From a virus, in IMG/VR virus record IMGVR_UViG_3300045988_171958, positions 224,001 through 288,000 of that record: a stretch of DNA of 64,000 nucleotides; one strand, given 5' to 3'. Positions within the stretch are counted from its first letter, which is position 1. Every line of letters begins with the position of its first letter. The notes beneath the pieces were generated by a model that saw only the letters and a list, made by a program, of their open reading frames with translations, searched no databases and had not been told where the DNA came from. This document shows positions 11,839 to 30,880 of this stretch, piece after piece. Made by a program: the position numbers and the translations under genes.

Positions 11839-11911
11839 CATAATAAACCGGAGAACTAGCAGTGCCGTGAGAATAAGATCCGATTGCAAAGTCAACCCGG
11901 TTATAGTATAT

Positions 11912-11984: not shown

Positions 11985-11994
11985 CAATATATAT

Positions 11995-12072
11995 GCATCA
12001 GTGGTGTAGTTGGTGGTGCACATCTGGCTTCCAACCAGAAGGCTTTCGCGAGTTCGAATCTCGTCTGATGCT
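11995..12072 (+). tRNA. trnG: tRNA-Gly (UCC) with 8-nt variable loop
   Basis: Acceptor GCATCAG/CTGATGC; anticodon arm TCTGG-CTTCCAA-CCAGA; T arm GCGAG-TTCGAAT-CTCGT. The variable region AGGCTTTC is 3 nt longer than class I norms. Confidence 0.75.
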
Positions 12073-12079
12073 CTAATAT

Positions 12080-12167
12080 CTAGGTGTACTCTAATTGGTC
12101 AGAGCCTTGATTTGGGATCAAGTGGATACTGATAAAGTGGATGCAGGTTCGAGTCCTGTCACCTAGA
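12080..12167 (+). tRNA. trnP: tRNA-Pro (UGG) with anomalous 20-nt variable region
   Basis: Acceptor CTAGGTG/CACCTAG; D arm CTCT-AATTGGTC-AGAG; anticodon arm CTTGA-TTTGGGA-TCAAG; T arm GCAGG-TTCGAGT-CCTGT. TGGATACTGATAAAGTGGAT lies between the anticodon and T arms. Confidence 0.65.
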
Positions 12168-12173
12168 CTATAT

Positions 12174-12250
12174 ACACCGATCAGTCAATTGGTTTAGGCT
12201 AGCAGTCTCCAAAATTGCTAATATTGGTTCGATTCCAGTTCGGTGTGCCA
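12174..12250 (+). tRNA. trnW: tRNA-Trp (CCA); CCA end encoded
   Basis: Acceptor ACACCGA/TCGGTGT; anticodon arm GCAGT-CTCCAAA-ATTGC; T arm ATTGG-TTCGATT-CCAGT; 3' GCCA. Confidence 0.85.
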
Positions 12251-12277
12251 GTGTTTAATTTTAAATGTTGTTAATAT

Positions 12278-12682
12278 ATGAGTAACATGAGAAATAGAGC
12301 TTGGAGAAGAAAGAAGACTGAATCAAAATGGAATTCTCGTTGTAAGAAGTTCATGTTTGATAGTATTTTTAGAGATGGTGATAAAGAATATTCATTCAAC
12401 ATAAGTGAAGGTAATGGCAAGAAAATCAGACGTACAATAATGATTCCTAATTTGAGAAGACCAACTTCATGGAAAGAAATGAAGAAACTTGATCCGTGGG
12501 CTAGGTTTTTGAAGAATGGTTCTGGATATCGTACTTATATATCAGACCAGATGGATGCTAAGCGAAAAGTTAAGTTGCAACGTATCAACAACAAGAAACT
12601 TATCAATGAAGGAATTCAGGAATATGATGACATATATGATGAAACTTTAGAAGATAATTTCTATCTTAATAATGTAGCATAA
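12278..12682 (+). CDS. Small basic protein of unknown function embedded in the tRNA array (134 aa)
   Basis: ATG-initiated ORF MSNMRNRAWRRKKTESKWNSRCKK... with an Arg/Lys-rich N-terminal two-thirds and an acidic C-terminal tail. It exactly fills the gap between tRNA-Trp and tRNA-His. Confidence 0.7.
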   Translation: MSNMRNRAWRRKKTESKWNSRCKKFMFDSIFRDGDKEYSFNISEGNGKKIRRTIMIPNLRRPTSWKEMKKLDPWARFLKNGSGYRTYISDQMDAKRKVKLQRINNKKLINEGIQEYDDIYDETLEDNFYLNNVA

Positions 12683-12693
12683 ATTATGTACAT

Positions 12694-12765
12694 GGGTTCT
12701 TTCGTTCAATGGTAGGACAGGAGGTTGTGGTTCTCCTTATTAGAGTTCGATTCTCTAAGGAACCC
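12694..12765 (+). tRNA. trnH: tRNA-His (GUG) with encoded G-1
   Basis: Extra 5' G (12694) opposite discriminator C; acceptor GGTTCTT/AGGAACC; anticodon arm GGAGG-TTGTGGT-TCTCC; T arm TAGAG-TTCGATT-CTCTA. Confidence 0.85.
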
Positions 12766-13149
12766 CAAACGTGATCAGAATATACTGGTGATTGGACAAA
12801 AACAATGTAGCTGAGAAGAGTAATGCAATAATACGCGTAAATAATTGCATGAAACATATAATAAGCGCGGATGAAAAAAGCCTTACCTATGGCCGCCTCC
12901 CTACATTTGTATTTTGAATGTCAATGAAACAATAAGTATAAGGTTTGGTAACGCTTATTAAATTAATTGGTTCATTCAAGTTCACTATGCAGTCTGGGCT
13001 TTATAGAGCCTTGTAGTTTAAAGCATCGTAAAACATTCTGGTTATAAGAGAATATATCACCCAAGCGAATTGTCATGAGATTCGTACACCTGCTTAAGAT
13101 GGTTGAATTATGTGGGAAGTAATTCTATAAAATAGGGCATGCCCACAAT

Positions 13150-13223
13150 GGCGTAATAGCTCAGTTGATTAGAGCGCATCATTCATGCTGATGAGGTCGT
13201 TGGTTTGAGTCCATCTTACGCCA
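13150..13223 (+). tRNA. trnM: tRNA with CAU anticodon (Met; Ile-lysidine type not excluded)
   Basis: Acceptor GGCGTAA/TTACGCC; anticodon arm CATCA-TTCATGC-TGATG; T arm GTTGG-TTTGAGT-CCATC. Confidence 0.8.
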
Positions 13224-13303
13224 CAGCTTAAACGGACCGAACTTAGTCTTTTATGCATCTTTTCTCTAGGGTAAGGTGTTAAACACCAAAAGAAAAGGCA
13301 CCA

Positions 13304-13386
13304 GGGAATATGCTGTAATTGGTAGCCAGGCCAGACTTAGGATCTGGTGCTTCAATAGCGTGTGGGTTCGAGTCCCACTATTCCCA
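13304..13386 (+). tRNA. trnL: tRNA-Leu (UAG), class II
   Basis: Acceptor GGGAATA/TATTCCC; anticodon arm CCAGA-CTTAGGA-TCTGG; variable arm with GCT-TCAAT-AGC; T arm GTGGG-TTCGAGT-CCCAC. Confidence 0.85.
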
Positions 13387-13649
13387 CAATCGTTGAAGTA
13401 ATGTAGTTTATGAAAGTCTAACATTAGTAATGGAAACCTAATGGCCCTCTATGTTATCCTAAAGAGAATAAAGTACGATTAGTAAATGAGTTATGGATCT
13501 GTTTAAACAGATCGCTTCAGAACTTCTAAAGAAGTCAGTAAGTTAGATGAAACCACCATAATATAATATCTGGATAACTATATGTATGGATAGGAATGAA
13601 GTTTTAGGTGCAGACACCGGTAGCGTCACCTTTTGTAATTCCTAGTATT

Positions 13650-13735
13650 GCTCCGATGTTGGAATTGGTAGACAAGATGGACTTAAAATCCATTGGTCAG
13701 TGATGACCGTACGGGTTCGATCCCCGTTCGGAGTA
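13650..13735 (+). tRNA. trnL: tRNA-Leu (UAA), class II
   Basis: Acceptor GCTCCGA/TCGGAGT; anticodon arm ATGGA-CTTAAAA-TCCAT; long variable arm GGTCA-GTGA-TGACC; T arm ACGGG-TTCGATC-CCCGT. Confidence 0.85.
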
Positions 13736-13913
13736 CAAATTGATAGCAATCCTGAATAGAGAAGGAAGAAAGACGAGTTATGAAGGTAAGTATGCTTAAA
13801 GCTGCACGTATAATGCAGTGCATACCAAGGATAAATAACTAAAACACACCATATAAACTCTACACGAAGGTCTGATGCAGGAAGTGCGCACTTGCTATCA
13901 ATTTATTTTTATT

Positions 13914-13997
13914 GCTTTCATGGCGGAATTGGTAGACGCAACTGTCTCAAAAACAGCTGATAGAAATATCATGAAGGTTCGAGTCCTTCTGGAAGTA
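13914..13997 (+). tRNA. trnL: tRNA-Leu (CAA), class II
   Basis: Acceptor GCTTTCA/TGGAAGT; anticodon loop CTCAAAA; variable arm GATA-GAAA-TATC; T arm GAAGG-TTCGAGT-CCTTC. Confidence 0.85.
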
Positions 13998-14031
13998 CTT
14001 ATTATTCAATTAAACAATTATTTTATTTTAC

Positions 14032-15033
14032 ATGAGATTACCTTTGGTGCCACTTTCAGAATGGGTATTGAATAGACAGAATGAATTTGAATTAAAATTA
14101 TTTGAATCATTCAGACAAGAATTCAATATAAGAGACAATGAAGAATTTAATATTTGTGAAAGATATGGGTCTTATGATGGACAAATGAAATTCTGTAGAG
14201 ACTTTGCAACAATGTTGTCAGAAGACATACAAGACAATCTTAATATGACTGATTTTAGATATGACTTAAATAAAGAAGAAATTAAAGATTATTATAAAGG
14301 ATTGTTTTTTGACAATATTCACTTGATATGTAATACAATGTGTCAGACAGGATATCAAGCAAGAAAATCTGAATATAATCCAAAAACCCTTACATTTAAA
14401 GATGTATATATCTATATAAACATCAAGGAATACAATAAAGAAAAGGACATTACTGTTGCACTTACTCATGAGCTTACACATGCTTATGATGATTGGAACA
14501 GACACTCAAAAGAAGGAGTTGAAACATTACTTGATATTGAGAAAAACACAGGATATGATAAATTAATTGATAAGATAAAGTCAAGTGATTTCAATGAAAA
14601 GATTGCATCTGAAATGATTTATACATTCACTTCAGTAGAAAAGAATGCTTACATGTCAGAATTGACCGCTGAAATAGAAAGTATAGGGGAAAAAATCAAA
14701 GATTATACATATATGGATGCGTTAAAAATATTTAAGAATTCAGATACATGGAAAAGATTCAATCAATTCAAAGAATATTTTATGTTGATGAATAATGAAG
14801 AAAAGAAAGTATTGTGTGATGTATACAGAGAAATAAAGAAATCAAGCAATACAGACAATAAGATATTAAAACAATTGAAATATGATATACAAGAAACATT
14901 TGATAAGATGTGTACTATCATACCAAAGATTTACTATTATTACAAAGAAAAGTATTCAAATAAAGAAATAAAGAAAGAAAAAGTAAGTGAATCAAGATTA
15001 AATAGAATAAAGAAAAGATTTAACATAATTTAA
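14032..15033 (+). CDS. Putative Zn-metallopeptidase-like protein (HExxH) inside the tRNA array (333 aa)
   Basis: ALTHELTHAYDDW contains HELTH (aa 146-150, nt 14467-14481), a zincin-type HExxH motif. The rest is K/E-rich and helical, with no further family assignment. Confidence 0.5.
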   Translation: MRLPLVPLSEWVLNRQNEFELKLFESFRQEFNIRDNEEFNICERYGSYDGQMKFCRDFATMLSEDIQDNLNMTDFRYDLNKEEIKDYYKGLFFDNIHLICNTMCQTGYQARKSEYNPKTLTFKDVYIYINIKEYNKEKDITVALTHELTHAYDDWNRHSKEGVETLLDIEKNTGYDKLIDKIKSSDFNEKIASEMIYTFTSVEKNAYMSELTAEIESIGEKIKDYTYMDALKIFKNSDTWKRFNQFKEYFMLMNNEEKKVLCDVYREIKKSSNTDNKILKQLKYDIQETFDKMCTIIPKIYYYYKEKYSNKEIKKEKVSESRLNRIKKRFNII

Positions 15034-15096
15034 CTAAATAATATTGTCCACTTTACTATTTATATATTATATTTAAATGAATAAATGAATAAAACA

Positions 15097-15210
15097 ATGA
15101 GAACTATCACAAATACATATTATCAAATAATTGATGAACAGGCCATTGATAATCAACGAATGGTTTGCTCTTGTTTTGGTATATGTGAAAGTGATGAGAT
15201 TGACTTTTAA
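15097..15210 (+). CDS. Possible small ORF (37 aa, MRTITNTYYQIIDEQAIDNQRMVCSCFGICESDEIDF)
   Basis: Below the ORF-track cutoff. Its 5' end ATGAGAACTAT is shared with the small ORF at 19033, and a hairpin follows it. Confidence 0.25.
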   Translation: MRTITNTYYQIIDEQAIDNQRMVCSCFGICESDEIDF

Positions 15211-15253
15211 ATACGTCCTCCACTGTTTAAACATTCAACAATACAATCAAGAC

Positions 15254-15281
15254 AAGAGCAATACAGAAATGTGTTGCTCTT
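15254..15281 (+). terminator. Hairpin AAGAGCAA-(12 nt)-TTGCTCTT followed by TGTTGATTT
   Basis: 8-bp stem read directly; the loop is large, so this is a weak terminator call. Confidence 0.3.
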
Positions 15282-15380
15282 TGTTGATTTAGCTTCAGCT
15301 GTACTGAAGCATGAAGTACTAAAAAAGTTGATAAAAAATGAAAATTTTTTGAAAGATCTTTGAAATACTGATAAATCAAA

Positions 15381-15397
15381 TCTATATTATATATGTA
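15381..15397 (+). promoter_or_regulatory. Promoter-like motif TCTATATTATATATGTA
   Basis: Identical over 17 nt to the 10519-10535 copy; 38 nt upstream of the ATG at 15435. Confidence 0.5.
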
Positions 15398-15434
15398 AGT
15401 TATATAAAATATCACATTTAAAATTATAATTATT

Positions 15435-15656
15435 ATGACAAGATTAGAATCAAACATTAAGATATTGAATATTATAAAGCAACTTGCCTATATGTTTCCA
15501 GATATGAGATTCATTCAGTTGCTTACAACTGTTGATGCAATTCTTGGTACTGATCAGTTCTATGAGGAATCGGAAGTTACATTGAATAGAATCAAAGAGA
15601 AAATTGAATATCAACAAAGAAGATATGGTAAGTTGACTGATATTGATATTAATTAG
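15435..15656 (+). CDS. Hypothetical protein (73 aa) in the tRNA array
   Basis: ATG ORF preceded by the promoter motif and followed 12 nt later by tRNA-Glu. Confidence 0.6.
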   Translation: MTRLESNIKILNIIKQLAYMFPDMRFIQLLTTVDAILGTDQFYEESEVTLNRIKEKIEYQQRRYGKLTDIDIN

Positions 15657-15667
15657 ATAATATAAAT

Positions 15668-15741
15668 GGCGCGTTCGACAAGTGGCCTAAGTCGCCAGTT
15701 TTTCACGCTGGTATTCACCGGTTCGAATCCGGTACGCGCTA
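15668..15741 (+). tRNA. trnE: tRNA-Glu (UUC)
   Basis: Acceptor GGCGCGT/ACGCGCT; 3-bp D stem GAC/GTC with AAGTGGCCTAA loop (as in E. coli tRNA-Glu); anticodon arm CCAGT-TTTTCAC-GCTGG; T arm ACCGG-TTCGAAT-CCGGT. Confidence 0.85.
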
Positions 15742-15752
15742 CGATAAATATT

Positions 15753-15835
15753 GGGTAGATAGATAAGTGGTTAAAATGGTTTGACTGTAAATCAAATGGC
15801 TTCGGCCTTCGGGAGTTCGAATCTCTCTCTGCCCA
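15753..15835 (+). tRNA. trnY: tRNA-Tyr (GUA), class II
   Basis: Acceptor GGGTAGA/TCTGCCC; anticodon loop CTGTAAA; variable arm GGC-TTCG-GCC; T arm GGGAG-TTCGAAT-CTCTC. Confidence 0.85.
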
Positions 15836-15984
15836 CCGGGTCAAAAGAGCAAATGATAATCATGACAAAGTGATGTGTGAACAATTTAGATATAATCAAC
15901 GCTTTACGTTGCTTGCAACTAAAGTTATTGTGAAAGCCACATAGGAGATTGATGTGCAGCTAACTGAGACTTTAATCAGTATTT

Positions 15985-16061
15985 GGAGTATTAAGCCCTG
16001 TTGGTAAGGGAACTAGACTGTCACTCTAGTAAAACTAAGGGTTCGAGTCCCTTATGCTCCG
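15985..16061 (+). tRNA. trnD: tRNA-Asp (GUC), 7-nt variable loop
   Basis: Acceptor GGAGTAT/ATGCTCC; anticodon arm CTAGA-CTGTCAC-TCTAG; T arm AAGGG-TTCGAGT-CCCTT. Confidence 0.8.
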
Positions 16062-16070
16062 CAAATAGAT

Positions 16071-16142
16071 TGGACTATGGTGTAACTGGAAACACTACAG
16101 ATTTTGGTTCTGTCATTCGGAGTTCGAACCTCCGTGGTCCAA
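16071..16142 (+). tRNA. trnQ: tRNA-Gln (UUG)
   Basis: Acceptor TGGACTA/TGGTCCA; anticodon arm ACAGA-TTTTGGT-TCTGT; T arm CGGAG-TTCGAAC-CTCCG. Confidence 0.85.
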
Positions 16143-16148
16143 CAATTT

Positions 16149-16259
16149 AGGTGGTTATATCAGTTGGTTAACTTAGTTCTTGAACAGAACATAAGTGATG
16201 TTCATTAGATAGCTTGCCTGATAAGCAAGAGGTCATAGGTTCAAGTCCTATATCACCTA
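16149..16259 (+). tRNA. trnI: tRNA-Ile (GAU) interrupted by a 37-nt hairpin insertion in the D-loop
   Basis: Acceptor AGGTGGT/ATCACCT; D stem TATC (16158-61) pairs with GATA (16208-11); anticodon arm CTTGC-CTGATAA-GCAAG; T arm ATAGG-TTCAAGT-CCTAT. After the canonical AGTTGGTTA, the D-loop carries ACTTAGTTCTTGAACAGAACATAAGTGATGTTCATTA (16171-16207). Confidence 0.7.
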
Positions 16260-16289
16260 CAAGATTCTTTGAAATTTTGGATATAGTTA

Positions 16290-16308
16290 TTCTATATTTA
16301 ATATAAAT
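16290..16308 (+). promoter_or_regulatory. Internal promoter-like motif TTCTATATTTAATATAAAT
   Basis: Core TTCTATATT lies 5 nt upstream of tRNA-Ile(UAU) and the nuclease gene. Confidence 0.4.
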
Positions 16309-16312
16309 AAAT

Positions 16313-16386
16313 ACTCCAGTAACTCAGTTGGTTAGAGTGCTCGGCTTATACCCAAGTGGTCGGGGGTTCAAGTCCCTCCTGGAGTA
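16313..16386 (+). tRNA. trnI: tRNA-Ile (UAU)
   Basis: Acceptor ACTCCAG/CTGGAGT; D arm ACTC-AGTTGGTTA-GAGT; anticodon arm CTCGG-CTTATAC-CCAAG (one C/A mismatch); T arm GGGGG-TTCAAGT-CCCTC. Confidence 0.75.
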
Positions 16387-16397
16387 CTATTAAATGT

Positions 16398-17021
16398 ATG
16401 GATTTAATAAAAAGTTATGCAAGTAAATGTTGTACAGGGCAAAAGAAAATAGCTTATTGTGTAGATTGTGGGAAAGAACTTATAATTTATAAAAGAGCTT
16501 CTTCAAAAACTTGTAGATGTGATAATTGCAGAAAAAACCGCATTAGACAAAAAAGACTACAATATAGATTAAATTTTTTAAATAATGATTATGAAATTCA
16601 TTTTGGTAGAAAATATTCAAAAGAAAGCTGGCTAGCATTACATAATGGTGGTTGTAAAGGAATACAACATCAAGGTGATTTAAGACGTAGTAAAAATGAA
16701 ATAGAATTTTGTAAATTATGTGAAGAATATTTTAATAATGTTAAACATAATGAATGTATATTTAATGGATGGGATGCAGATATAATAATAGAAGATATAA
16801 AATTCGCGGTATTATGGAATGGTCCATGGCATTATAAACAAATTACGAAATCTCATTCAGTTAAGCAAATACAAAATAGGGATAAAATAAAGATAAAAGA
16901 AATTAAAGAATCTGGTTGGACACCTTATATTATAAAAGATATGGGTAAGGCAAATAAAGATTTTGTTAAAGAAAAATTTGATGAATTCTTGAAATATTTA
17001 AAAGAAAATACTATTATTTAA
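16398..17021 (+). CDS. Zn-ribbon + PD-(D/E)xK (Vsr/DUF559-like) nuclease, probable homing endonuclease (207 aa)
   Basis: The track ORF starts at GTG 16356 inside tRNA-Ile(UAU); the first ATG after the tRNA is 16398 (MDLIKSY). N-terminal CVDCG...CRCDNC; C-terminal SKNEIEF...GWDADIIIEDIKFAVLWNGPWHY...RDKIKIKEIKESGWTPYIIKD matches the E...D...ExK Vsr/DUF559 pattern. Confidence 0.55.
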   Translation: MDLIKSYASKCCTGQKKIAYCVDCGKELIIYKRASSKTCRCDNCRKNRIRQKRLQYRLNFLNNDYEIHFGRKYSKESWLALHNGGCKGIQHQGDLRRSKNEIEFCKLCEEYFNNVKHNECIFNGWDADIIIEDIKFAVLWNGPWHYKQITKSHSVKQIQNRDKIKIKEIKESGWTPYIIKDMGKANKDFVKEKFDEFLKYLKENTII

Positions 17022-17037
17022 ATAGTTAATTATATAT

Positions 17038-17119
17038 CGTGGGTGAGTGAAACGGATATTTATAAATCACGTCGGTCTCATAAGCCGTACAATAGTGGGT
17101 TCGACTCCCACACCCATCA
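17038..17119 (+). tRNA. trnM: Second CAU-anticodon tRNA (Met, possibly initiator-like) with enlarged D-loop
   Basis: Anticodon loop CTCATAA; T arm GTGGG-TTCGACT-CCCAC; acceptor CGTGGGT/ACCCATC with unpaired 1:72 (C/C); D stem GTGA/TCAC encloses a 16-nt loop. The 5' boundary is uncertain. Confidence 0.5.
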
Positions 17120-17143
17120 CTAACAAAGAAATTCTAAACTTAA

Positions 17144-17216
17144 GGATCGATAGCTCAGTTGGTAGAGCAACTTGCTGTTAACAAGAAGGTCGTCAGTTCG
17201 AATCTGGCTCGGTCCG
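17144..17216 (+). tRNA. trnN: tRNA-Asn (GUU)
   Basis: Acceptor GGATCGA/TCGGTCC; anticodon loop CTGTTAA; T arm GTCAG-TTCGAAT-CTGGC. Confidence 0.9.
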
Positions 17217-17413
17217 CAAACGGCAACGATTATTTAGAGGCGGCTTAACTGCTACTCGAATGTGATATGGGTTGGATAATCACCAACATGGTCAAGGACA
17301 TGCACACTTCTTGATATTGACGCGACAAAACAAGATGAAGCCTAATATTACGGTGAAAGTCGAACTCTTTCTTGAATTCATCCTCTTTGTCAATTGATAG
17401 AATCCTTGAATTT

Positions 17414-17488
17414 GGGGTCAATAGCTCAGTTGACTAGAGCACTTGATTTGCATTCAAAAGGTCCAGGGTTTGAATCCCTGTGGCTCCA
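17414..17488 (+). tRNA. trnA: tRNA-Ala (UGC)
   Basis: Acceptor GGGGTCA/TGGCTCC (two G-U pairs); 3-nt instead of 2-nt linker before D stem GCTC; anticodon loop TTTGCAT; T arm CAGGG-TTTGAAT-CCCTG. Confidence 0.8.
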
Positions 17489-17630
17489 CAAGTAATAGAG
17501 AGGACCTAGCATTTAACTAGGTGGTTGTTAGAGGTGTCAGTGCAATCTACAGGTACTCCTGATAGCTCAATGTATTACGAGAATATGGTCATGATAGTTT
17601 GCACATCTGATGCCATATTTGATTTTATAT

Positions 17631-17703
17631 GCCATTATAGCTCAATTGGTAGAGCATCTGTCTTGTAAACAGAAGGTTATCGGATCATACCCGGTTAATG
17701 GCT
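17631..17703 (+). tRNA. trnT: tRNA-Thr (UGU) with atypical T-loop
   Basis: Acceptor GCCATTA/TAATGGC; anticodon arm TCTGT-CTTGTAA-ACAGA. The T arm is ATCGG-ATCATAC-CCGGT, with loop ATCATAC instead of TTCRANY. Confidence 0.75.
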
Positions 17704-17724
17704 CAAATTATTTATGGAAAAGAA

Positions 17725-19781: not shown

Positions 19782-22580
19782 TTAGTTGAATTGCCTGAAT
19801 CTAGCTCTCAATGGATCTTGGTTATATTGTCCAGGCATATCATATATGCTTGGTTCATTTCCATATCCATTAGGTGATCCATAGAAATCATTCATAGATG
19901 GCAATCCTTGTTGCATACCTGTATTGTACATTGTATACATGTTAGGTATACTGGTACTTGCATTACTTTGTGTTTCTCTATATATACTAGAAGATTCTGC
20001 AGCAGCAGTAGGTAAATTTCTGTTATCCAATGATACTGTTATCTGTTTCTCTTCTTTCTTCTTTTGCAATACATTAGACATCATATCTGCTATCTTCTTA
20101 AGCATATCTAGTTTCTTCATTTCTGATTCTTCCTTTTCTATTTGTTCCCATTGTCCAGTAGCTTTCATCTCTATCTCCCACTCTTCCATGAAATCTTTAT
20201 ATTTTGTAGTATTCTTAAGAAGTGGAAGTTGTACAAAAGTCATTATCAAATCATCATGGCCGTATGCAGCAGCATAACTGCCATTTCCATTCTTATCTTC
20301 AAAATTCTCAAGCTCTGAAACAGTAAGCAAGTCTGTTATTATGACATCAAACTTCTCTAACATCATCTTAAGCAATGCACATGCAGATATCTTAGTAGCA
20401 TGACTCAATCTGATACCTGGAATTGTCTTGCTGTTTTTGAATCCATTCAAATTAGCAATATTGTCTTCTTGACTGCCTTTCTTGTATCTTATCAAATTAG
20501 CCAAGTCAAATTCACCTAATGGATTTACTTGCCATCTCCAACTTGCCTCTGGCATATATTCAGGTTCATTCAAATTCTTAAGATAGTTGTAGAATAAAGC
20601 ACCATAAGTATTCCATTCTACTGACACTATAGTCTTATTAGGATTGAATAACTGTCCATACAATACCCAGAACTCTAAGCTAGCTTGTTCCAAATCTATA
20701 GTATTGCAATGCCAATATCCTATTTGTTCAAACTTATCTTTTCCTATTACTTCTATTATGTTGAATGTTGTAAAGTCATTACCACCACCTTCTGCTAAGT
20801 CAACTAATATGATGAACCATCCAATCTTCAAATAATGCAAGTCATAATCTTTCTTGAACTTAAATTCTGTCTTATGTAAGCTGAAATACCAACTATCATC
20901 TGTAGGTGTCTCAAACAAGTAAGTCAAGTCTCTTATCTTTCCTAAGCATTCTCTTGATACAAGACATTTATCAGATGCAGAGAATTGTGTACCATATTGA
21001 TAGTAGAAAGCTTCTTCTGAACCTAAGACACCAACCATCATAGCTTTCCAAGCATTATCTCTCTTCTTCCAAATATGATTGTCAGGATCCCATTGAGGAA
21101 CTTGCCACCAATCTACTTTAAATGGAGCATACATAGACTTTCCTGTTTCTGCGGCATGCCATAGCTTATAGAACAAATTGAATCCATTTTGTGTTGACAT
21201 GATACATATATTAGAGCTTGTATCTGCAGTAACAGTAGGAAGAATGTTGTTGTAGAACAATTCAACATCATTAGGTGGACACCAAGCAAACTCATCAAGT
21301 ATCAAGAAGTTTATTGTCTTACCAAGACCGGCAGTAGGAGAGAAAGCTTCAGTAGATATTGTAGAGTTGTTGTCAAAAGCTATCTCTGACTGATTCCACT
21401 TCAAAGTACCAAGCTTCAGATGGTAAGGAAGATACAGATACATATCTTTTATCTTCTTTATCAAATCTTGTCCTGCTGGACCAGACTTAGAAAGTATCAA
21501 TGCATTTCTATCATTTCTGAACAATACTGACCAAAGACAGAATATTGCTGTAGTTGTTGAGTTGTGACTCAATATTCCATTAGTATAATATCTGTGATAA
21601 GGATGTTCTACTGAAACATCACACATAGATACTTTTGTTTTAGATACTGAAACAGACTTTACCATAGATGGTCCTCTATCTGTCATTATTTTAGATAGGT
21701 TTTCAACAAGTTTATCAGCATATATTATATCTAAGTTTTCATCAAACAACATGTGTTTGTCTGCACATTCTATAGAATACCCATTTTCAAGGATTACCTT
21801 ATATATTGCAAATGGCTTAGTATTGTAAATGTATGATATTGGTTGATATCCAACATCTGTCAATACTTTTATCCTATATTCAGAAATATCTATTTCTTTA
21901 GTGGTTTTACAGTTATCTAAAAGTTCCTTATGAAATACAAAATTGTATTCTAACCAATCAACAACTTCTACTGCTTTATAGTTTTCTTTTTTATATAGAT
22001 AATATTTCAGTTTCCAGAAAGCAGAGTTATCAAACAAGTTTTGAAATTCATAAAAAGGCAATTCAAACAAATAGTCAGATCCACTTTTTACATATTTGAA
22101 ATTCTTAAAAAGATATGTGAATTTTTGTTTACCAAACTGAATACCATAATTGTTTATGAATGCATTAGTAAACAAAAACTTCACCGTTGTATTTTGTAAA
22201 AGGCACTTTCCACTTTGTCTGCAACTTAAAAACAGGCTGAATCTGTTTTGTTGAAGATGTCTCATGTAATCTTCCTGATAGTCACGGAGTATTACTGGTT
22301 GCAAACCAGTTGGGGTCATAAGATAGCATTTGGTAGCAAAGTACAATGGATCTTCCATACAATGCATATAATCTTCTATCTCTTCTTGTGTACGCTTGAA
22401 GACCAGATCTGGCTTCAATAACTTAGTATTCTTACCAATAAAAGGGTTTGCTTTCAATGGCAAACCCTTCTTCATAGCATCTACAGCTTTCTCAAGTACT
22501 GAACAGCTCCAGATAACTGCTTCTGCCTCTTTTCCTCCTTTATCTCTCTTTACTGGATCAAATTCAAATTCTTTAGCCAT
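19782..22580 (-). CDS. terL: Terminase large subunit (T4 gp17-like) interrupted by an intein
   Basis: After removing aa 126-340 the sequence reads RDYQEDYMRHLQQNRFSLFLSCRQSGK|STTTAIFCLW (Walker A as in T4 gp17 SRQLGKT). Walker B is FLILDEFAW, followed by a C-terminal nuclease-sized domain. Confidence 0.9.
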   Translation of the reverse strand: MAKEFEFDPVKRDKGGKEAEAVIWSCSVLEKAVDAMKKGLPLKANPFIGKNTKLLKPDLVFKRTQEEIEDYMHCMEDPLYFATKCYLMTPTGLQPVILRDYQEDYMRHLQQNRFSLFLSCRQSGKCLLQNTTVKFLFTNAFINNYGIQFGKQKFTYLFKNFKYVKSGSDYLFELPFYEFQNLFDNSAFWKLKYYLYKKENYKAVEVVDWLEYNFVFHKELLDNCKTTKEIDISEYRIKVLTDVGYQPISYIYNTKPFAIYKVILENGYSIECADKHMLFDENLDIIYADKLVENLSKIMTDRGPSMVKSVSVSKTKVSMCDVSVEHPYHRYYTNGILSHNSTTTAIFCLWSVLFRNDRNALILSKSGPAGQDLIKKIKDMYLYLPYHLKLGTLKWNQSEIAFDNNSTISTEAFSPTAGLGKTINFLILDEFAWCPPNDVELFYNNILPTVTADTSSNICIMSTQNGFNLFYKLWHAAETGKSMYAPFKVDWWQVPQWDPDNHIWKKRDNAWKAMMVGVLGSEEAFYYQYGTQFSASDKCLVSRECLGKIRDLTYLFETPTDDSWYFSLHKTEFKFKKDYDLHYLKIGWFIILVDLAEGGGNDFTTFNIIEVIGKDKFEQIGYWHCNTIDLEQASLEFWVLYGQLFNPNKTIVSVEWNTYGALFYNYLKNLNEPEYMPEASWRWQVNPLGEFDLANLIRYKKGSQEDNIANLNGFKNSKTIPGIRLSHATKISACALLKMMLEKFDVIITDLLTVSELENFEDKNGNGSYAAAYGHDDLIMTFVQLPLLKNTTKYKDFMEEWEIEMKATGQWEQIEKEESEMKKLDMLKKIADMMSNVLQKKKEEKQITVSLDNRNLPTAAAESSSIYRETQSNASTSIPNMYTMYNTGMQQGLPSMNDFYGSPNGYGNEPSIYDMPGQYNQDPLRARFRQFN
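21561..22205 (-). mobile_element. Intein (215 aa) inserted in the TerL P-loop
   Basis: Begins with Cys126 (TGC at 22205-22203; CLLQNTTVKF = block A) and ends ...MCDVSVEHPYHRYYTNGILSHN (blocks F/G, His-Asn at 21566-21561), followed by +1 Ser. Block B-like SIECADKHMLF. No LAGLIDADG, HNH or GIY-YIG motif seen. Confidence 0.85.
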
Positions 22581-23519: not shown

Positions 23520-24209
23520 TTATTCACTTACAAATGATGTTTTTGAATTCATTTCATCTATGGTATCTGATATCGCTTTAGAACACTTCAATATAGATGG
23601 ACATAAACTTACAGTATAAGGATTTCCATTAGCTGCATTATTCAATTCATCTAATCCAGCCTTCAAATCTGACAACAATTTGTATAGTTTATTTCCTCTA
23701 ACTATTGGGTCTTCACATTTTTCTGTTAAACCAACAAATACTTTTGACCCTCTTATAGATATTTCAGTACCATTAGATTTGCTTTCTATATCCCCGGCTT
23801 GATTTATCTGGGTTTGAGCATGTTCGCCTATTCTAGTTACAAATCCTTGGTTGCCTGTATAGAACATCTGAGCACCAACACTCTTACCAGATCTTGACAC
23901 TAATACATCATAATCAAAATCTTGTTGAGCAGCAGTAGTATTGATGTTTGTTTCCCACATTGTAATATAATAATATTCATATTCATTTGTGGAATCATGC
24001 AATATCCATACTTTTTGTCCCTCTATGCATTTAGAGACACGTTGATATCCTGATCCACTTGTAAATGGAGCAATCCAAAACATATCTTCTTCATGCATAG
24101 AGGCATTATTAAACCAACCAGGAACTACAGCTTTGATTCGACCCATTTTCTTTGGATCATCAGCAGTCACTACAACTCCAGGTCTTATTTCACAATTACT
24201 CAGTTTCAT
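23520..24209 (-). CDS. Baseplate central spike/hub protein with gp5/gpV-type OB-fold (229 aa)
   Basis: IRPGVVVTADDPKKMGRIKAVVPGWF...MFWIAPFTSGSGYQRVSKCIEGQKVWILHDS parallels the T4 gp5 N-terminus FVGVVEDRMDPLKLGRVRVRVVGLH...LPWMSVIQPITS...GPVEGTRVYGHFLD. Confidence 0.6.
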   Translation of the reverse strand: MKLSNCEIRPGVVVTADDPKKMGRIKAVVPGWFNNASMHEEDMFWIAPFTSGSGYQRVSKCIEGQKVWILHDSTNEYEYYYITMWETNINTTAAQQDFDYDVLVSRSGKSVGAQMFYTGNQGFVTRIGEHAQTQINQAGDIESKSNGTEISIRGSKVFVGLTEKCEDPIVRGNKLYKLLSDLKAGLDELNNAANGNPYTVSLCPSILKCSKAISDTIDEMNSKTSFVSE

Positions 24210-24930
24210 CTGATAAATTATCTATATCATCTTTAGAGAAGATAATGGTAAACTTACCCTTTTCCATTTTCTCTTTATATCTATTTTGTCCAAATGTTTT
24301 ATCACAACCAAGACATACTGCTTTGACAACTTTCTTACCAACAACAAACAATGATGGGAAAAGTGTTACTGTATCACCTTCATTATCATAAATGAACCAA
24401 GAATCTCCTTCATCAATTGCTGCATTAAATTCTTTTTCAAATTTACCACATATATCTTTTACTTGATCTATAACATCATCTGTTATTCCAACTTTCTTAA
24501 TATATTCATTCTTTGATATTTCAGCCTTCATGTGTGCCTTGAACATACCAATAATTTCTTTTGGATCTTTATTAGACCAATTTTCTTTATTGAATATTTT
24601 ATGGAAATCAGCATTTGATGATGCATAATCTATAGGGGTTATTTCAAACAAATCTTTTGTATTGCGAACTCCTCTTCTTCTTATCTGTCCATTATCTATA
24701 ATCTTGGATAAAGCTTCCAAGTTAGATTTTTCAGTACCAGTTGTTGAAATCACATATAATGACTTGTTAGTACCAAGTACTTTCTTTACGGATCTGTTCC
24801 ATTTTGTGATTCTTGTCTTCTTCAAACCAATGTTTGTAAATATTGGTGTTAAATCACCTACTTCTTTTGCATTTCCTGTAATATCTGACTTAGATATTGA
24901 TTCTTCTATAAATTCTACTAATGATTTCAT
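24196..24930 (-). CDS. CTS-like-leader protein (244 aa), candidate packaged internal protein
   Basis: N-terminus MKSLVEFIEES compared with the T4 capsid targeting sequence MKTYQEFIAE. Located immediately downstream of the portal gene. Confidence 0.55.
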   Translation of the reverse strand: MKSLVEFIEESISKSDITGNAKEVGDLTPIFTNIGLKKTRITKWNRSVKKVLGTNKSLYVISTTGTEKSNLEALSKIIDNGQIRRRGVRNTKDLFEITPIDYASSNADFHKIFNKENWSNKDPKEIIGMFKAHMKAEISKNEYIKKVGITDDVIDQVKDICGKFEKEFNAAIDEGDSWFIYDNEGDTVTLFPSLFVVGKKVVKAVCLGCDKTFGQNRYKEKMEKGKFTIIFSKDDIDNLSDETE

Positions 24931-24945
24931 TTGACTTTTTATATT

Positions 24946-26730
24946 TTACATTTCTCCAGATCCGCCTTCAGCTGAATTGTCCGGTTGTACATCTCCCATC
25001 ATTTCTGAATCTCCTCCAGCATCTTCTGATCCATCATTTTCCATTCCTGCATCTTCTGAATCTGAATCCATTCCTGACATTTCTTCTTCACCATTCTCTT
25101 CTTCCTCAGATTCTGCATCACCCTTTTCTTGCTTCTCTAACCATTTGCATTTTTGGTTGTATTCAAAATCAGCATCAGACATCTTCAGATATCTTTCAAG
25201 TAAGAATCTCATAGAGAAATAGCTATCTTCATTTCCTTCAGCATCAGTTGTAGTGAATGTATCTTTAAGCATACCAATTGTTTCAAGACGTTTGTTGGTA
25301 ACTTCAAGATCCATCATTTCAGTAAATTGATTGTAAGAATTGTATCTGAATATGATAGCATCCAATACTCTCTTGTCATTCTTCATCTCTGGAATTGAGA
25401 GAGCAACTTGAATCTGAATAGGTTTGATGATTACCATAGAGAATACATTTCTAAGTCTGTCAACAAATCTACCAAAGTTTATTTCATCTCTAAGAGTTTG
25501 AGTTGGATCAGTTCCAAACCAAGCAGCAGCATTTTCTTTGTCAAATCTGCTTTCTGGTATCTTAGACATCTTATATAGCTTAGAAAGATAGTACTTAAGC
25601 TGTTCACTATCATTAAGGCTTGGACCTTGGTCAACAAGTGTCTCTATTTCCGGCTTACCATTTTCATTTTCAGGCATCCAATATTCTTTATTGAATGGAA
25701 GATTAGTTCTGCCATTTACTTTAAGTTCACCAGTTTCTGTATTGAAGTCTATATCTTCTTTATATCTAGCCATAGCAGAATTCAGAGTCTGCATACCTTT
25801 TGCTCTGTTCATACCAGCTACAGGTATAGTGAACATTGTCTTAAAGCTGGCTTGAGTTACAGTCCAGATAAGTTGTGCTTGCTCTATGATTCTGTATATG
25901 TTGAATGGTCGAATCAGACGTTCAAGATATGATTGTCTATCTATTACTCCACTATCTTCATACTTGATATATATTACTTGAGAATCAAGCATGATACGTT
26001 CCTGTCCAATCACATCTTTGAACTGTACCCAATATTGTATGCCATTGTCAATAACACGAGTAATAGTAGCTGGATCTATAGGAATGATACCAATGATTGT
26101 ATGAGGGTTTTCTATGTTGTCATATACAATTTCATAAGCTATTACTCCATCTATCAGCCATCTTTTGAATTGGTCCCAAGCTTTGTTTTTCCAATCAAGA
26201 AGCATATATATCTTATAGAAGGTTGTATCTACACAGTTCTTTATCTCTTCTATATGATTTTCATTCAATTGTTGCAGTACACTTGGTTCAATATAAGGTT
26301 CTCCAATATAGACATCATTATCATCATAAACTATACATTCGTTAGCCATGATATCCAATATATCTTCTATTTCTGGATTCATAGCCATCTTTCTCAGAAC
26401 ATCTCTTTTCTGTTCAAGAGTCTTTTCTCTAAATGGTTTGTCTTCTTCTGGCTTCTGCTTCCAGTTATCCATTATACCAGCATACAAGTTAGAAGTCATT
26501 ACTCCAATATCTTTAGGTTGCATCAACTTGTCTGCTGGTACCGCTTTCATGTTCTTTATAACATCAGAAGTCCAGTTCATACCATAATGACTGAGCTTAT
26601 ACAGAATTTTTGCAAGATGACCAGGTTCTCTTACCTGCATCTGGTTTTGCTGTATAGGCATCATATCATTAGCTTGTTCATATATAGTTTTATTTCCTTC
26701 TAATACGTTACTTAAGTTACCAAATATCAT
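24946..26730 (-). CDS. Portal protein (T4 gp20-like), acidic C-terminal tail
   Basis: 594 aa. The segment YWMPENENGKPEIETLVDQGPSLNDSEQLKYYLSKLYKMSKIPESRF matches my recollection of the conserved gp20-family core. Position in the head module next to TerL supports it. The C-terminus is E/D/G/S-rich. Confidence 0.7.
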   Translation of the reverse strand: MIFGNLSNVLEGNKTIYEQANDMMPIQQNQMQVREPGHLAKILYKLSHYGMNWTSDVIKNMKAVPADKLMQPKDIGVMTSNLYAGIMDNWKQKPEEDKPFREKTLEQKRDVLRKMAMNPEIEDILDIMANECIVYDDNDVYIGEPYIEPSVLQQLNENHIEEIKNCVDTTFYKIYMLLDWKNKAWDQFKRWLIDGVIAYEIVYDNIENPHTIIGIIPIDPATITRVIDNGIQYWVQFKDVIGQERIMLDSQVIYIKYEDSGVIDRQSYLERLIRPFNIYRIIEQAQLIWTVTQASFKTMFTIPVAGMNRAKGMQTLNSAMARYKEDIDFNTETGELKVNGRTNLPFNKEYWMPENENGKPEIETLVDQGPSLNDSEQLKYYLSKLYKMSKIPESRFDKENAAAWFGTDPTQTLRDEINFGRFVDRLRNVFSMVIIKPIQIQVALSIPEMKNDKRVLDAIIFRYNSYNQFTEMMDLEVTNKRLETIGMLKDTFTTTDAEGNEDSYFSMRFLLERYLKMSDADFEYNQKCKWLEKQEKGDAESEEEENGEEEMSGMDSDSEDAGMENDGSEDAGGDSEMMGDVQPDNSAEGGSGEM

Positions 26731-26749: not shown

Positions 26750-26761
26750 CTTATATAAAAA
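26750..26761 (-). promoter_or_regulatory. Late-promoter-like TTTTTATATAAG (minus strand) upstream of portal
   Basis: Reverse complement of cttatataaaaa, about 20 nt upstream of the portal ATG. The same TTTATATAA core occurs upstream of three other minus-strand units. Confidence 0.3.
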
Positions 26762-26791
26762 TATAGAGAATTGAAATTACAACCTATTGAT

Positions 26792-27753: not shown

Positions 27754-28482
27754 TTAATCATAAGAAGAGTCCTCTTTATCTTGCCAATCATCAGGTAAGT
27801 TTAAAATATCTGTCCAACCAAGCATTATATCAATAATACTACTACCAGGACCATCCCAATAAAGATCATCATCTGTGTATTCATCATTCATTACATTATC
27901 CATGAATTCATCACTATCATAGAATTTCTCACCACTTTTTCTAGCATATTTTACAGCATCTTTAATATTGTCAAATGATTTAACTATATAGCTAGCATCA
28001 AAGTCTTCATAGTCAAAATACGCAGAACCTAAAAGACCAAGCAAGTCTGATAGTGTACCAATATGCAAACATTGATGATATTCATCTTTGTAAATATAGA
28101 ATTTTGCCTTAGGAACTTTGACATCTTTCCATTTTACAAATTTAAATGCTCCATCATCACTGCCACTTGTAATTTGTTTTAATACTGGGAATTTGATTGT
28201 ACTTACTTTAGAAGCTGGTTCCGCTTTTGCAAGAGCTTTCATAGCTGGATTATTAGCTGTCATATCTTTGACAGTAGCAACTACTTTACCACAGTTCTTA
28301 GCATCAGGACCAGGTTTCCAACCTTTAAGCTCCTTTTCAAGAGCCTTACCAGCAGCAACAGCAAATCGGTTTGCTTGTGAATTTCTACCTTTCTCTCTGG
28401 CAGCCTTTGAAGCACGACCAAGCAATTCAGAACTAAGCTCCATAATCAATGCTTCATTCAAATACTGACTTAAATTTTTCAT
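27754..28482 (-). CDS. CTS-like-leader protein (242 aa), acidic C-terminus
   Basis: N-terminus MKNLSQYLNEALIMELSSE (L-N-E site at position 8-10). Confidence 0.5.
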   Translation of the reverse strand: MKNLSQYLNEALIMELSSELLGRASKAAREKGRNSQANRFAVAAGKALEKELKGWKPGPDAKNCGKVVATVKDMTANNPAMKALAKAEPASKVSTIKFPVLKQITSGSDDGAFKFVKWKDVKVPKAKFYIYKDEYHQCLHIGTLSDLLGLLGSAYFDYEDFDASYIVKSFDNIKDAVKYARKSGEKFYDSDEFMDNVMNDEYTDDDLYWDGPGSSIIDIMLGWTDILNLPDDWQDKEDSSYD

Positions 28483-28505: not shown

Positions 28506-28526
28506 TTTATAAATAATAATAAGTTT

Positions 28527-28598
28527 TTTGAAATTTTTTATGTTTGTTCTAAATTTATTTGCAACAAGATTGAAATAAATCAAGATTGTTCTATATTA
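28527..28598 (+). repeat. 72-nt duplicated control region, copy A (contains promoter motif and CAAGATTG direct repeat)
   Basis: 68/72 identical to 63508-63579; the last 48 nt AAATTTATTTGCAACAAGATTGAAATAAATCAAGATTGTTCTATATTA are identical. CAAGATTG occurs at 28565-72 and 28581-88; TTCTATATT starts at 28589. Confidence 0.8.
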
Positions 28599-28637: not shown

Positions 28638-29024
28638 ATGATTATGAAGAAGTTTTTTGTTACTTTTATTTTCTGTGTAGTATCTGTTATATCATTTGCT
28701 AACACTCCTACATATTTTGTAAAGAACATTGATACAGAAAATATGCCTATCATGGATCTTGAATCACAAGAAAATACAGAATACTGGGTATCAATGTTCA
28801 AATTTGTTCAAGCTGCACAGAAATCAAATGCAACTAAAATGGTAATCAAATATGATGGAAAATGGAAGTATGTAATTCCATCTTCTGAAGCCCTTATTCA
28901 GTTGGATATCATTATTTCTCATTTATGTTCTGGTAGTTCCGTTAAGAATGGTACATTTGAAAAAGGAATGAAAGAAGCTTTTGAAATAGCAAAGAAGGAT
29001 AAATTGATTATTTCTGTACGTTAA
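28638..29024 (+). CDS. Small secreted protein (signal peptide; about 128 aa)
   Basis: M-I-M-KKFFVTFIFCVVSVISFA|NTP is a typical signal sequence. The track start is TTG 28632, with ATGs at 28638 and 28644. Confidence 0.65.
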   Translation: MIMKKFFVTFIFCVVSVISFANTPTYFVKNIDTENMPIMDLESQENTEYWVSMFKFVQAAQKSNATKMVIKYDGKWKYVIPSSEALIQLDIIISHLCSGSSVKNGTFEKGMKEAFEIAKKDKLIISVR

Positions 29025-29199: not shown

Positions 29200-30468
29200 A
29201 TGAATTATTCATTTTTAAATAATTTTCAACCATTTGTTGTAAAGTTCATAGATGATATTTGCATACCTAAATCTTGTAGAGGAAAATATCTTCTATGTAT
29301 AAATGCAATGGGTATCAAATGGTTTGAAGAAAATTACATAACACTAGAATACGGTGATGGTTTTATTGAAGGTGAGGTTCTAGGTCCTAAGTATCTGATG
29401 CTTGAGGATAGTGGAGCTAACAAGTTTGACATGCCTAGAATTTATGTACCAATTACAAAGGAGTTGATTGATAATGATACTTCAGAATTAGGAAAATTCT
29501 TAATTAAAGCACTTACAGACAATAGTGTATATGGTACTGGTATAGAAGGTTTTAGACCTAGTAAAAACTATTACTTGAATGAAACATTATACAAATGGTG
29601 TACTAGAACAAAAGACCATACTGGTAATGATATTCAATCATTAGCAGAAGAAGATGATGACATATATTTACCCGACTATCTCTATTATGATAGAGAAAAT
29701 GACAAACCTAAAATAACATCATATTTTGAAGAATTGTCTGATAATGAGAAGAAAAGCATTGACTTGAATTTCTTCTTCAATAAGAATGAAATATCAGATT
29801 TGAAGTTTACTGAAGATGATTTCTATTTCTTTCCACAAACTTTCTTCAAAATCATATTAAAGTATACAACTATAACAGAAGAAAACAGACAGGCAGTACC
29901 AAATAATGTTTATGATGTTGTACAGAAGTATTTTGTTAATCATAAAAATGATGAAGCAACAAAACTGTTACAGACTATCATGAATACCAGTACAGATGGT
30001 ACTGATTTGCCTTCTACTATTTCTACTTGCAATTCTTGTACTAACCAATATAATCTATTAAGTGGAAGTTCAAATATAGGTGAAAAGAGTTGTCTAGAAA
30101 AGTATAGAGATGCTATGGATTCATGGTTGAAGATCATGTTGGGTGATTTAGTATATTACAATTCTTGGATGACAGTAAATGAGAACAATACTAAATATCC
30201 TAATTATGATTTGATAGATTTGTTGATAGAATTTCTGAATGAATATATCAAGTACAACAACTTCCCATCCAAAGAACAGAATAGCATAACTAATTTCAAT
30301 TGCCCATCATTAGATAGTTCTTATGATGATAGTGATTGTATTAAAAGTACAATCATGAACTATATTAAAGTTCTAGAATGGGTAAAGAAATGTGAAACTG
30401 TAAAGAACAGAAATAAAATAAAGGTATATGGTAGAGATTTTGCTAATTACCTTTTAACATATTTTTAA
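29200..30468 (+). CDS. Hypothetical protein (422 aa)
   Basis: The track ORF starts at GTG 29065 inside the hairpin element; the first ATG is 29200 (MNYSFLNNFQPF). Confidence 0.75.
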   Translation: MNYSFLNNFQPFVVKFIDDICIPKSCRGKYLLCINAMGIKWFEENYITLEYGDGFIEGEVLGPKYLMLEDSGANKFDMPRIYVPITKELIDNDTSELGKFLIKALTDNSVYGTGIEGFRPSKNYYLNETLYKWCTRTKDHTGNDIQSLAEEDDDIYLPDYLYYDRENDKPKITSYFEELSDNEKKSIDLNFFFNKNEISDLKFTEDDFYFFPQTFFKIILKYTTITEENRQAVPNNVYDVVQKYFVNHKNDEATKLLQTIMNTSTDGTDLPSTISTCNSCTNQYNLLSGSSNIGEKSCLEKYRDAMDSWLKIMLGDLVYYNSWMTVNENNTKYPNYDLIDLLIEFLNEYIKYNNFPSKEQNSITNFNCPSLDSSYDDSDCIKSTIMNYIKVLEWVKKCETVKNRNKIKVYGRDFANYLLTYF

Positions 30469-30490
30469 ATTAACGTTAATTAAAACATAT

Positions 30491-30880
30491 ATGAAAAGTT
30501 TAGTAGAAACATTGAATGAATCACTAAATATCAATGAAAGTAAAGAAAAGATGCTTAGATTCGAATTTGGTGACCTAGATCATGCAGATGAGACTATCAA
30601 ATCTATTGAAGATCTTGCTAATAAGAATTCTGTGTATTCAGAAAAAATTGATGGTGGTATCAAGATTAAAGCTAATGATTCCAATAAGGATAAGTTAGAT
30701 TCTATCCAAGATGTACTTCAACAATATGTACAGAAAATGCAGGATGATGATAAAGCAAATCAAGATGATGTAAAGTCATTAGCAAATCAATTGAATAAGT
30801 TGAGTGACTTTATTGAATCAGAAGATGACGATGATAAAGAAGATAAAGAAAATAAAGAAGATAATGAAGAAGGAGAATAA
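30491..30880 (+). CDS. CTS-like-leader protein, highly acidic (129 aa)
   Basis: N-terminus MKSLVETLNESLNINES; C-terminus SEDDDDKEDKENKEDNEEGE. Confidence 0.55.
   Translation: MKSLVETLNESLNINESKEKMLRFEFGDLDHADETIKSIEDLANKNSVYSEKIDGGIKIKANDSNKDKLDSIQDVLQQYVQKMQDDDKANQDDVKSLANQLNKLSDFIESEDDDDKEDKENKEDNEEGE

Follow-up and report, generated by a model that had tools for sequence, protein, structure and literature searches.

A T4-style N-terminal leader probably marks head-packaged proteins in an uncultivated human-gut huge phage

The internal proteins of phage T4 carry at their N-terminus a capsid-targeting sequence (CTS) that reads MKTYQEFIAE and is removed by a single cut, and the mature protein, or a foreign protein fused to the sequence, remains in the head (PMC8442874); for the packaging of CTS fusions, Mullaney and Black (1996) are cited in PMC8442874. 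T4 head proteins are loaded via propeptides of 10-20 residues (PMC5694885), and the internal proteins of T-even phages form a diverse set of which the CTS is the sole common part (PMC3012670). We describe here a family of genes whose products begin with a comparable leader and which lie in a 64,000-nucleotide stretch of viral DNA (positions 224,001 to 288,000 of IMG/VR record IMGVR_UViG_3300045988_171958), the whole of which is called the window below. Judging from the sequence evidence, we regard this common N-terminus as likely to be a propeptide of T4 type, for capsid targeting and cleavage. The leader probably marks proteins that are packaged in the head.

In the phiKZ-like giant phages (SPN3US, 201phi2-1), many head-internal proteins are also processed after x-E by a prohead protease, and their propeptides, which are thought to be CTS-like, include those of paralogues with identical N-termini (PMC5694885). 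Most of these propeptides are longer than 100 residues, cleavage follows A/S/G-x-E and the portal is processed as well (PMC5694885), whereas the leaders described here have 9-14 residues with L or I at the third position before the putative cut (P3). For these reasons of length and P3 residue, membership of the phiKZ-like class of processed ejection proteins was rejected. Phage P1 likewise has a set of head-internal proteins, the Dar (defence against restriction) proteins, that is delivered with the DNA. The Dar proteins counter host defences, and their incorporation is ordered and interdependent and is not known to proceed via a short shared cleavable leader.

The window is part of an uncultivated human-gut huge phage of about 294 kb, because exact-protein look-ups find its proteins on contigs that are nearly identical to it and about 292-296 kb long; the contigs related to it come from human-gut metagenome assemblies. 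The sequence read consisted of the window together with about 10 kb of left and about 41 kb of right flank, or about 115 kb of the ~294-kb genome. An earlier note on this DNA had listed eight leader sites in the window, and all are present, as seven intact open reading frames (ORFs) and one frame-disrupted copy. With the members from the flanks and from strain variants, the set drawn from this ~115 kb of clade pan-genome has 13 members, given here with an arrow at the putative cleavage site:

24196-24930, minus strand: p244, 244 aa, MKSLVEFIEE↓S; same strand as the portal gene, from which it lies 15 nt downstream
27754-28482, minus strand: p242, 242 aa, MKNLSQYLNE↓A
30491-30880, plus strand: p129, 129 aa, MKSLVETLNE↓SLNINE↓S
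57220-57519, plus strand: p99, 99 aa, MKTLSKLLEE↓K
58802-59136, minus strand: p111, a pseudogene or sequencing error, MKSLLESLLTE↓S, frame broken
59292-59669, minus strand: p125, 125 aa, MKSLLESLNIALFE↓S; cassette gene found in some strains only
59688-60812, minus strand: p374, 374 aa, MKTLSMIKE↓S; acidic low-complexity tail; opens a variable cassette row
63955-64000, plus strand: p516, first 15 codons in the window, MKSLLSMIFE↓AGIPSK; 516 aa in near-identical contigs
Flanks or strain variants: p134, MKSLVECLLE↓E
Flanks or strain variants, few strains: p162, MKSLTVLINE↓E
Flanks or strain variants: p76, MKSLLQTLINE↓Q
Flanks or strain variants: p89, MKSLVKLINE↓S
Flanks or strain variants, few strains: p87, MKNLVSILNE↓S

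The (L/I)-x-E rule, which the earlier note gave for T4, holds in all 13 leaders, with L (seven) or I (six) at P3 and E at the last position before the putative cut (P1). The small residue that was supposed to follow is less regular, since the next position (P1') is S or A in nine of 13 and p99, for example, has K. Leader length ranges from 9 to 14 residues and is exactly 10 in nine members. A start of MK[S/T/N]L followed within 16 residues by (L/I/F/M/V)-x-E is found in seven of the 44 window genes versus none of 407 internal methionines (binomial P ~1.7e-10 for the motif count, given 12 genes starting MK), and the strict leader pattern is present in 2.1-2.5% of ORFs around capsid genes in other related phages. 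Once the leader is removed, an all-against-all BLASTP comparison yields no pair with E < 1, as expected from the earlier claim that the mature parts are unrelated.

The leader is shared at the level of the peptide and not as DNA identity. Both TCA and AGT serve as Ser3 codons, and for Leu4 the codons are TTA, TTG, CTC and CTA; the synonymous and non-synonymous codon choices show selection on the leader peptide. The DNA upstream also differs among leader genes, except for the tandem copies at 59.1/59.7 kb, and save for this pair the codon variety and the differing upstream DNA rule out recent DNA duplication as the source of the shared start. A Sec or lipoprotein signal peptide is likewise ruled out by composition, since the leaders are short and amphipathic, with an acidic end and no hydrophobic core. 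A contrast is provided by a 128-aa ORF (28638-29024, plus strand) whose product is probably secreted or lipoprotein-like, because it begins with a classical signal peptide, MIMKKFFVTFIFCVVSVISFA. The leader does not extend to the recognisable enzymes of the window, and no leader protein matches an enzyme family; its presence on clearly cytoplasmic enzymes had been named in the earlier note as a sign of a mere duplicated initiation region.

Conservation across long evolutionary distances is centred on the junction. Homologues of p516 occur in other huge phages, on contigs of up to 472 kb, with 25-33% identity (two at 22%), and they all carry hydrophobic-x-E with A, or in rare cases S, as the next residue and K.PS thereafter; E10 is at least 90% conserved, and P14 and S15 are invariant. 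The leaders of this family vary from 5 to 11 residues, ranging from MRINE↓A to MKDLKYFLMFE↓A. Orthologues of p242 retain the leader down to 45% identity, and their N9 and E10 are 98% conserved. Because E↓A is kept in the p516 family while the leader varies, and N9/E10 are kept in p242, the x-E element has the signature of a functional junction, which would most simply be a cleavage site. The C-terminus of the p516 family is also strongly conserved (alignment A4), with the consensus KMxAWHNGTRKQNV..CSDAKLK..Y.IC..GY..EA..L..EADSRGLxL(N)E↓S, and at its end there is what resembles a further (L/I)-x-E↓S cleavage site.

The strongest support for a T4-type leader comes from relatives, namely PAU, PTm1-like phages and clade capsid proteins. 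In PAU, at least 15 genes start MK[ST][LI]xxL[YF]E[AS] in a 30-kb region surrounding the genes for the portal, the protease (gp151) and the major capsid protein (MCP, gp156), and three more lie just upstream of this region. They include gp152, annotated as 'scaffolding', and gp142 and gp154, both annotated as 'internal capsid protein'. PAU has a portal 33% identical to that of the window phage and a Bacteroidota host (PMC3738902), and its leaders have the same form, whereas its mature proteins have no detectable relation to those of the window and its leader dialect is LYE↓A/S as opposed to LNE↓S here. On a PTm1-like contig, seven genes starting MKSLSTHITES adjoin the protease and MCP genes. 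In PTm1, the protease belongs to Peptidase_S77, the family of T4 gp21, and is joined to a region that resembles a scaffold; the PTm1 capsid protein falls in the Gp23 family, and a prohead protease is present in the relatives PTm1 (S77), PAU and LR756500-like phages. The clade capsid proteins start M..LINE[AS]E..W..I[IT]E[SA]TG and thereby bear x-E↓S/A sites like those of the leaders. Among IMG/VR stretches chosen solely by the DNA of MKSL[VLI]E, about 10 adjoin S77 proteases in other T4-like phages.

Each leader dialect is phage-specific and common to the leader genes of that phage, as would be expected if the leader co-evolves with one phage-specific partner. Longer N-terminal families were also observed in two huge phages. 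In L144 (7950-14309), MSLSxFIxERLKITS begins eight neighbouring genes beside a protease and a capsid gene, and in L301, a 472-kb phage, MKxLxxYIxEKLKINKDS begins at least nine genes (1-6258 and 11637-11969). A literature search turned up no paper that reports such leaders for PAU, PAU-like, Lak-like or other huge or jumbo Bacteroidota phages.

The comparison with the T4 capsid-targeting propeptide, which was the central proposal of the earlier note, is upheld as to form, in that the leaders start at Met1, have about 10 residues and carry (L/I)-x-E, as T4 propeptides do. The analogy is apt because the whole family follows the T4 rule of length and (L/I)-x-E. The T4 CTS proteins (IPI, IPII and IPIII, Alt and gp24, with the gp21 protease of MEROPS family S77) have the same propeptide of about 10 residues with (L/I)-x-E and then a small residue, and in T4 too the same leader precedes unrelated mature parts. 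Further propeptides in the T4 record (NC_000866) are MELITELFDE↓D for Alt, MAKINELLRE↓S for gp24 and MLKEQLIAE↓A for gp22, and the p244 leader is identical to the T4 CTS at six of 10 positions. The head genes of the window are also of T4 type, as had been claimed, and comprise the following:

19782-22580, minus strand: terminase large subunit (TerL), 932 aa, identified by a profile match
24946-26730, minus strand: T4-type portal (phrog_213 at 3.6e-75; PF07230)
62345-62983, minus strand: T4 gp2-like DNA end protector (PF26869; similar to the PTm1 'DNA end protector')
63002-63454, minus strand: gp4-like head completion protein (phmmer 1.5e-16 versus PAU gp134, annotated as 'head completion protein')

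At 932 aa, the TerL ORF is long for a terminase large subunit, and the profile match covers residues 67-793. This suggests an insertion or an extra domain.

There are clear differences from T4 as well. There are 13 distinct leader genes in the ~115 kb read here compared with about 4-5 in T4, and most of the mature parts are acidic, in contrast to the basic internal proteins of T4 (PMC8442874). The genome of about 294 kb and the probable gut Bacteroidota host also set this phage apart, and leader cleavage is here a prediction from the form of the sequence. Homology by descent to the mature domains of T4 IPI, IPII, IPIII or Alt was found for no member in PHROG, Pfam and PDB sequence searches. 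By portal sequence (29-36% identity), the nearest annotated relatives are the LR7565xx huge phages, PAU, Tenacibaculum phage PTm1, Chryseobacterium phage MA9V and Lak phages, whose hosts, where known, are all Bacteroidota; the PAU host is really Sphingobacterium and not Sphingomonas (PMC3738902). No Shine-Dalgarno sequence is visible upstream of the window genes, which fits a Bacteroidota-type host. The host is probably a gut Bacteroidota.

The mature parts are orphans, with no family match for the leader proteins in PHROGs, Pfam or PDB sequence searches. The structural check named in the earlier note was carried out on p242 and p516. Folded domains are present in the AlphaFold models of both p242 (pLDDT 69) and p516 (pLDDT 81.5), but no known fold was recognised, since neither model has a Foldseek match with E < 0.1 in PDB or BFVD. 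No leader protein resembles a known anti-defence protein in family, PDB sequence or fold searches, and because there is neither a family nor a fold match, an anti-defence role remains a conjecture. Internal (L/I)-x-E sites number 12 in the mature parts versus 20.4 expected, and seven members have none; this mild depletion fits a single cleavage.

Individual members differ in character. There is no Pfam or PHROG family for p244, and only six relatives were found among 1.8 billion cluster representatives. A metagenomic protein of 1518 aa (P0094) contains 20 tandem stretches that match residues 187-230 of p244, and this segment of about 45 residues is therefore a repeat module that also occurs elsewhere. 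The p129 protein has a net charge of -17, few helix-breaking residues (from sequence alone) and a poly-acidic C-terminal tail similar in character to that of the T4 prohead core protein gp67, and it looks more like a degraded core or scaffold component than like cargo. Because most mature parts are acidic and p129 has this gp67-like tail, part of the family may be core or scaffold.

Leader genes are gained and lost between strains as cassettes, and T-even internal-protein loci are similarly variable. Between strains, the row after p374 differs in its further leader genes, of which there are zero to three; some strains lack p516 or have a truncated copy, and p162 and p87 are found in only a few. 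One part of this row carries traces of exchange:

59137-59291: spacer of p374 remnants (an internal piece, the 3' end and the junction to the next leader), recognised by repeat comparison

Two repeats overlap this region. One (D16) pairs 59131-59196 with 59664-59729 at 94% identity, so that the end of the preceding gene and the start of the leader are duplicated in the tandem pair, and the other (D14) pairs 59201-59277 with 60179-60255 at 83%. The spacer marks a cassette rearrangement. The sole defect in the neighbouring p111 is the loss of one A from the A4 run located directly after the ATG (59128-59136). With this base restored there is a 111-aa ORF that is identical at 106 of 111 positions to the intact gene of a related strain, and intact 111-aa copies are present in L177 and L210. 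Either the frameshift happened very recently or the homopolymer was misread in sequencing; if it was not misread, the loss from the A-run could be slippage that switches the gene off.

Some leader genes share a promoter-like element with structural genes. There are 18 copies of the motif ATTTTTA[AT]NT[AT] in the window, of which 13 sit 10-69 nt (mostly 27-42 nt) 5' of a start on the same strand. The motif precedes the portal gene, five large structural ORFs, p129, p374 and p99, and its spacing at the leader genes is like that at portal and tail genes. It may be a late promoter of the phage. Examples are as follows:

26752-26762, minus strand: upstream of the portal gene
30461-30471, plus strand: 30 nt upstream of p129
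60836-60846, minus strand: 34 nt upstream of p374
43461-43471 and 54607-54617, minus strand: further copies

A second promoter-like motif, CTATATTATA[TC]ATGTA, is found exclusively on the plus strand, with exact copies at 10520, 15382 and 57580 and copies with two mismatches at 54638 and 63572. It precedes the tRNA blocks and plus-strand gene clusters, including the cluster that leads into p516.

The targeting, cleavage, packaging and injection of the leader proteins are inferred, and a T4-type scheme might operate as follows. During prohead building, the leader of about 10 residues, which is probably helical, would dock its protein on the scaffolding core. A T4-family (S77, gp21-like) prohead protease would then cut after (L/I)-x-E near residue 10, whereupon the cut peptide would exit the shell and the mature protein would be retained inside with the DNA. 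The set is probably mixed, wherein some members would be core or scaffold (p129 is a candidate, and the PAU scaffold carries a leader) and others would probably be cargo, delivered into the cell along with the DNA. As cassettes, new cargo genes would be acquired, dropped and shuffled from strain to strain.

One possibility is that the leader does target its proteins and is cut, while the majority of the family consists of core or scaffold parts that are disposable and are destroyed in maturation, being neither cargo nor an anti-defence arsenal. The highly acidic p129 with its gp67-like tail and few helix-breaking residues, the leader on the annotated PAU scaffold, mature parts with scaffold-like acidity unlike the basic T4 proteins, and the lack of any resemblance to known anti-defence proteins all favour such a role. 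However, the depletion of internal (L/I)-x-E sites, with seven members lacking them entirely, fits one cut and not degradation, strain-variable presence is not expected of essential assembly parts, and folded domains are predicted in the p516 and p242 models. On balance we consider it unlikely that this holds for most of the family. Perhaps, instead, the leader tags proteins for sorting to, or processing at, another destination, such as a chaperone, a phage-made compartment, a membrane or activation cleavage by another protease. Several leader genes do lie among non-structural genes or behind the second promoter-like motif, the longer N-terminal families of L301 and L144 show that other such starts exist in huge phages, and the protease of the window phage was not located in the ~115 kb read. 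Yet, in contrast to the signal peptide at 28638-29024, the leader lacks a hydrophobic core, its form equals that of T4 propeptides, the leader genes of PAU and L013 cluster around protease, scaffold and capsid genes, and the clade capsid proteins bear the same x-E↓S/A sites, so that another destination seems very improbable.

We give still less credence to a shared start that would be a translation-initiation or mRNA feature of an AT-rich genome without Shine-Dalgarno sequences, spread by duplication of 5' ends and having no role as a peptide. Such an origin would account for the many MK starts and for the tandem copies at 59.1/59.7 kb, which share upstream DNA and the leader start (D16), and it would agree with the lack of visible Shine-Dalgarno sequences. 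It does not account for conservation that reaches residues 8-11, where P3 and P1 are kept in all members and N9/E10 of p242 are nearly invariant, nor for the use of both the AGT and TCA codon families for Ser3 and of four codons for Leu4. The upstream regions differ, the motif is absent from internal methionines, and the E↓A junction of the p516 family holds at 25-33% identity (22% in two cases) with leaders of 5-11 residues.

Several observations weigh against the T4-type reading that we prefer. An MK start is itself common in AT-rich genomes and begins 12 of the 44 window genes. Nine of the 13 mature parts have a pI of 4.2-5.2, and T4 internal proteins are basic (PMC8442874). Some leader genes (p516, its homologues, and p87 of L287) lie outside structural modules: p516 follows the second promoter-like motif, which also precedes tRNA blocks, its homologues adjoin RecA and 5'-3' exonuclease genes, and p87 of L287 sits among replication genes. 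No head genes were found near distant p516 homologues in the genomic contexts examined. In PAU, gp70 is annotated as 'internal capsid protein' and yet has no leader, and the PAU 'internal capsid protein' labels are annotations of unstated basis. Finally, neither the window nor its ~50 kb of flanks (~115 kb together) yielded a gene for a prohead protease, a scaffold or a gp23-type capsid protein, and a degenerate capsid-motif DNA scan gave 74 matches, including PAU, PTm1 and pT24, of which none is in the clade of the window.

Other searches for these genes gave similar results. Pfam and PHROG scans of the window proteins revealed no capsid or protease, and when head proteins of PAU, PTm1 and LR756500 were compared by phmmer with the ORFs from all six frames of the window and its flanks, the gp4-like match was the only one. 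In a capsid-profile search of a 5.8-billion-protein set, the 120 listed of 3186 matches all belong to another clade, as do the best 80 loci of an IMG/VR capsid-profile scan. Because the motif scan found PAU, PTm1 and pT24 and no contig of this clade, the capsid protein of the window phage may be divergent. A 213-aa protein in the right flank (L296 6170-6811) has a Peptidase_G2/intramolecular-chaperone autoproteolytic domain (4e-17), and its gene lies beside that of a glycosyltransferase of family 2. Domains of this kind are typically found in the maturation of tail spikes.

Other features of the window are described briefly here. Its G+C content is 30%, and there are 25 tRNA genes, which form a block on the plus strand (10677-17704) that covers most amino acids and is interrupted by small ORFs; the motif CTATATTATATATGTA precedes it at 10520 and 15382. 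A run of very large tail-like ORFs is encoded, among which two tail-fibre-like giants of 1682 and 1291 aa (38381-43429 and 43516-47391, minus strand) contain dozens of 42-nt (14-residue) repeats around S-H-A-E-G. A 75-nt intergenic repeat occurs at 28524-28598 and 63505-63579 with 93% identity, each copy being located between divergently transcribed genes. An IMG/VR scan with its 30-nt core recovered only three stretches, one per contig in three clade contigs, and no new part of the genome. Another small N-terminal family is represented by two small neighbouring genes that share the start MIMIMNT (63610-63921, plus strand, and L296 19900-20301).

The principle that a CTS is common to diverse internal proteins is long established in T-even phages, and the advance is one of reach and scale. 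What is new here is the occurrence of T4-style propeptides in a distant, abundant human-gut huge phage, on an unusually large and strain-variable set of orphan proteins. The proteins carried in the T4 head include the anti-restriction protein IPI (PMC3012670), and Alt is a host-modifying enzyme according to the annotation of the T4 record. The leader genes are orphans that vary between strains and lack a known fold, and this makes them candidates for new functions in host takeover or anti-defence.

Should the tag act as it does in T4, a one-line sequence rule would list the head-carried, host-delivered proteins of an uncultivated gut huge phage, a class of proteins that is otherwise invisible in metagenomes. 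It is possible, if somewhat doubtful, that the leader is the mark of open-ended, strain-variable cassettes of injected effectors, both in this common human-gut lineage and, on a wider scale, in huge Bacteroidota phages with a T4-type head, with several dozen such proteins per genome that are recruited via recombination at the leader junction. If this were true, the set of injected proteins, new acidic anti-defence proteins among them, could be read directly from metagenomes. The leader tag may also be of use for loading foreign proteins into Bacteroidota phages.

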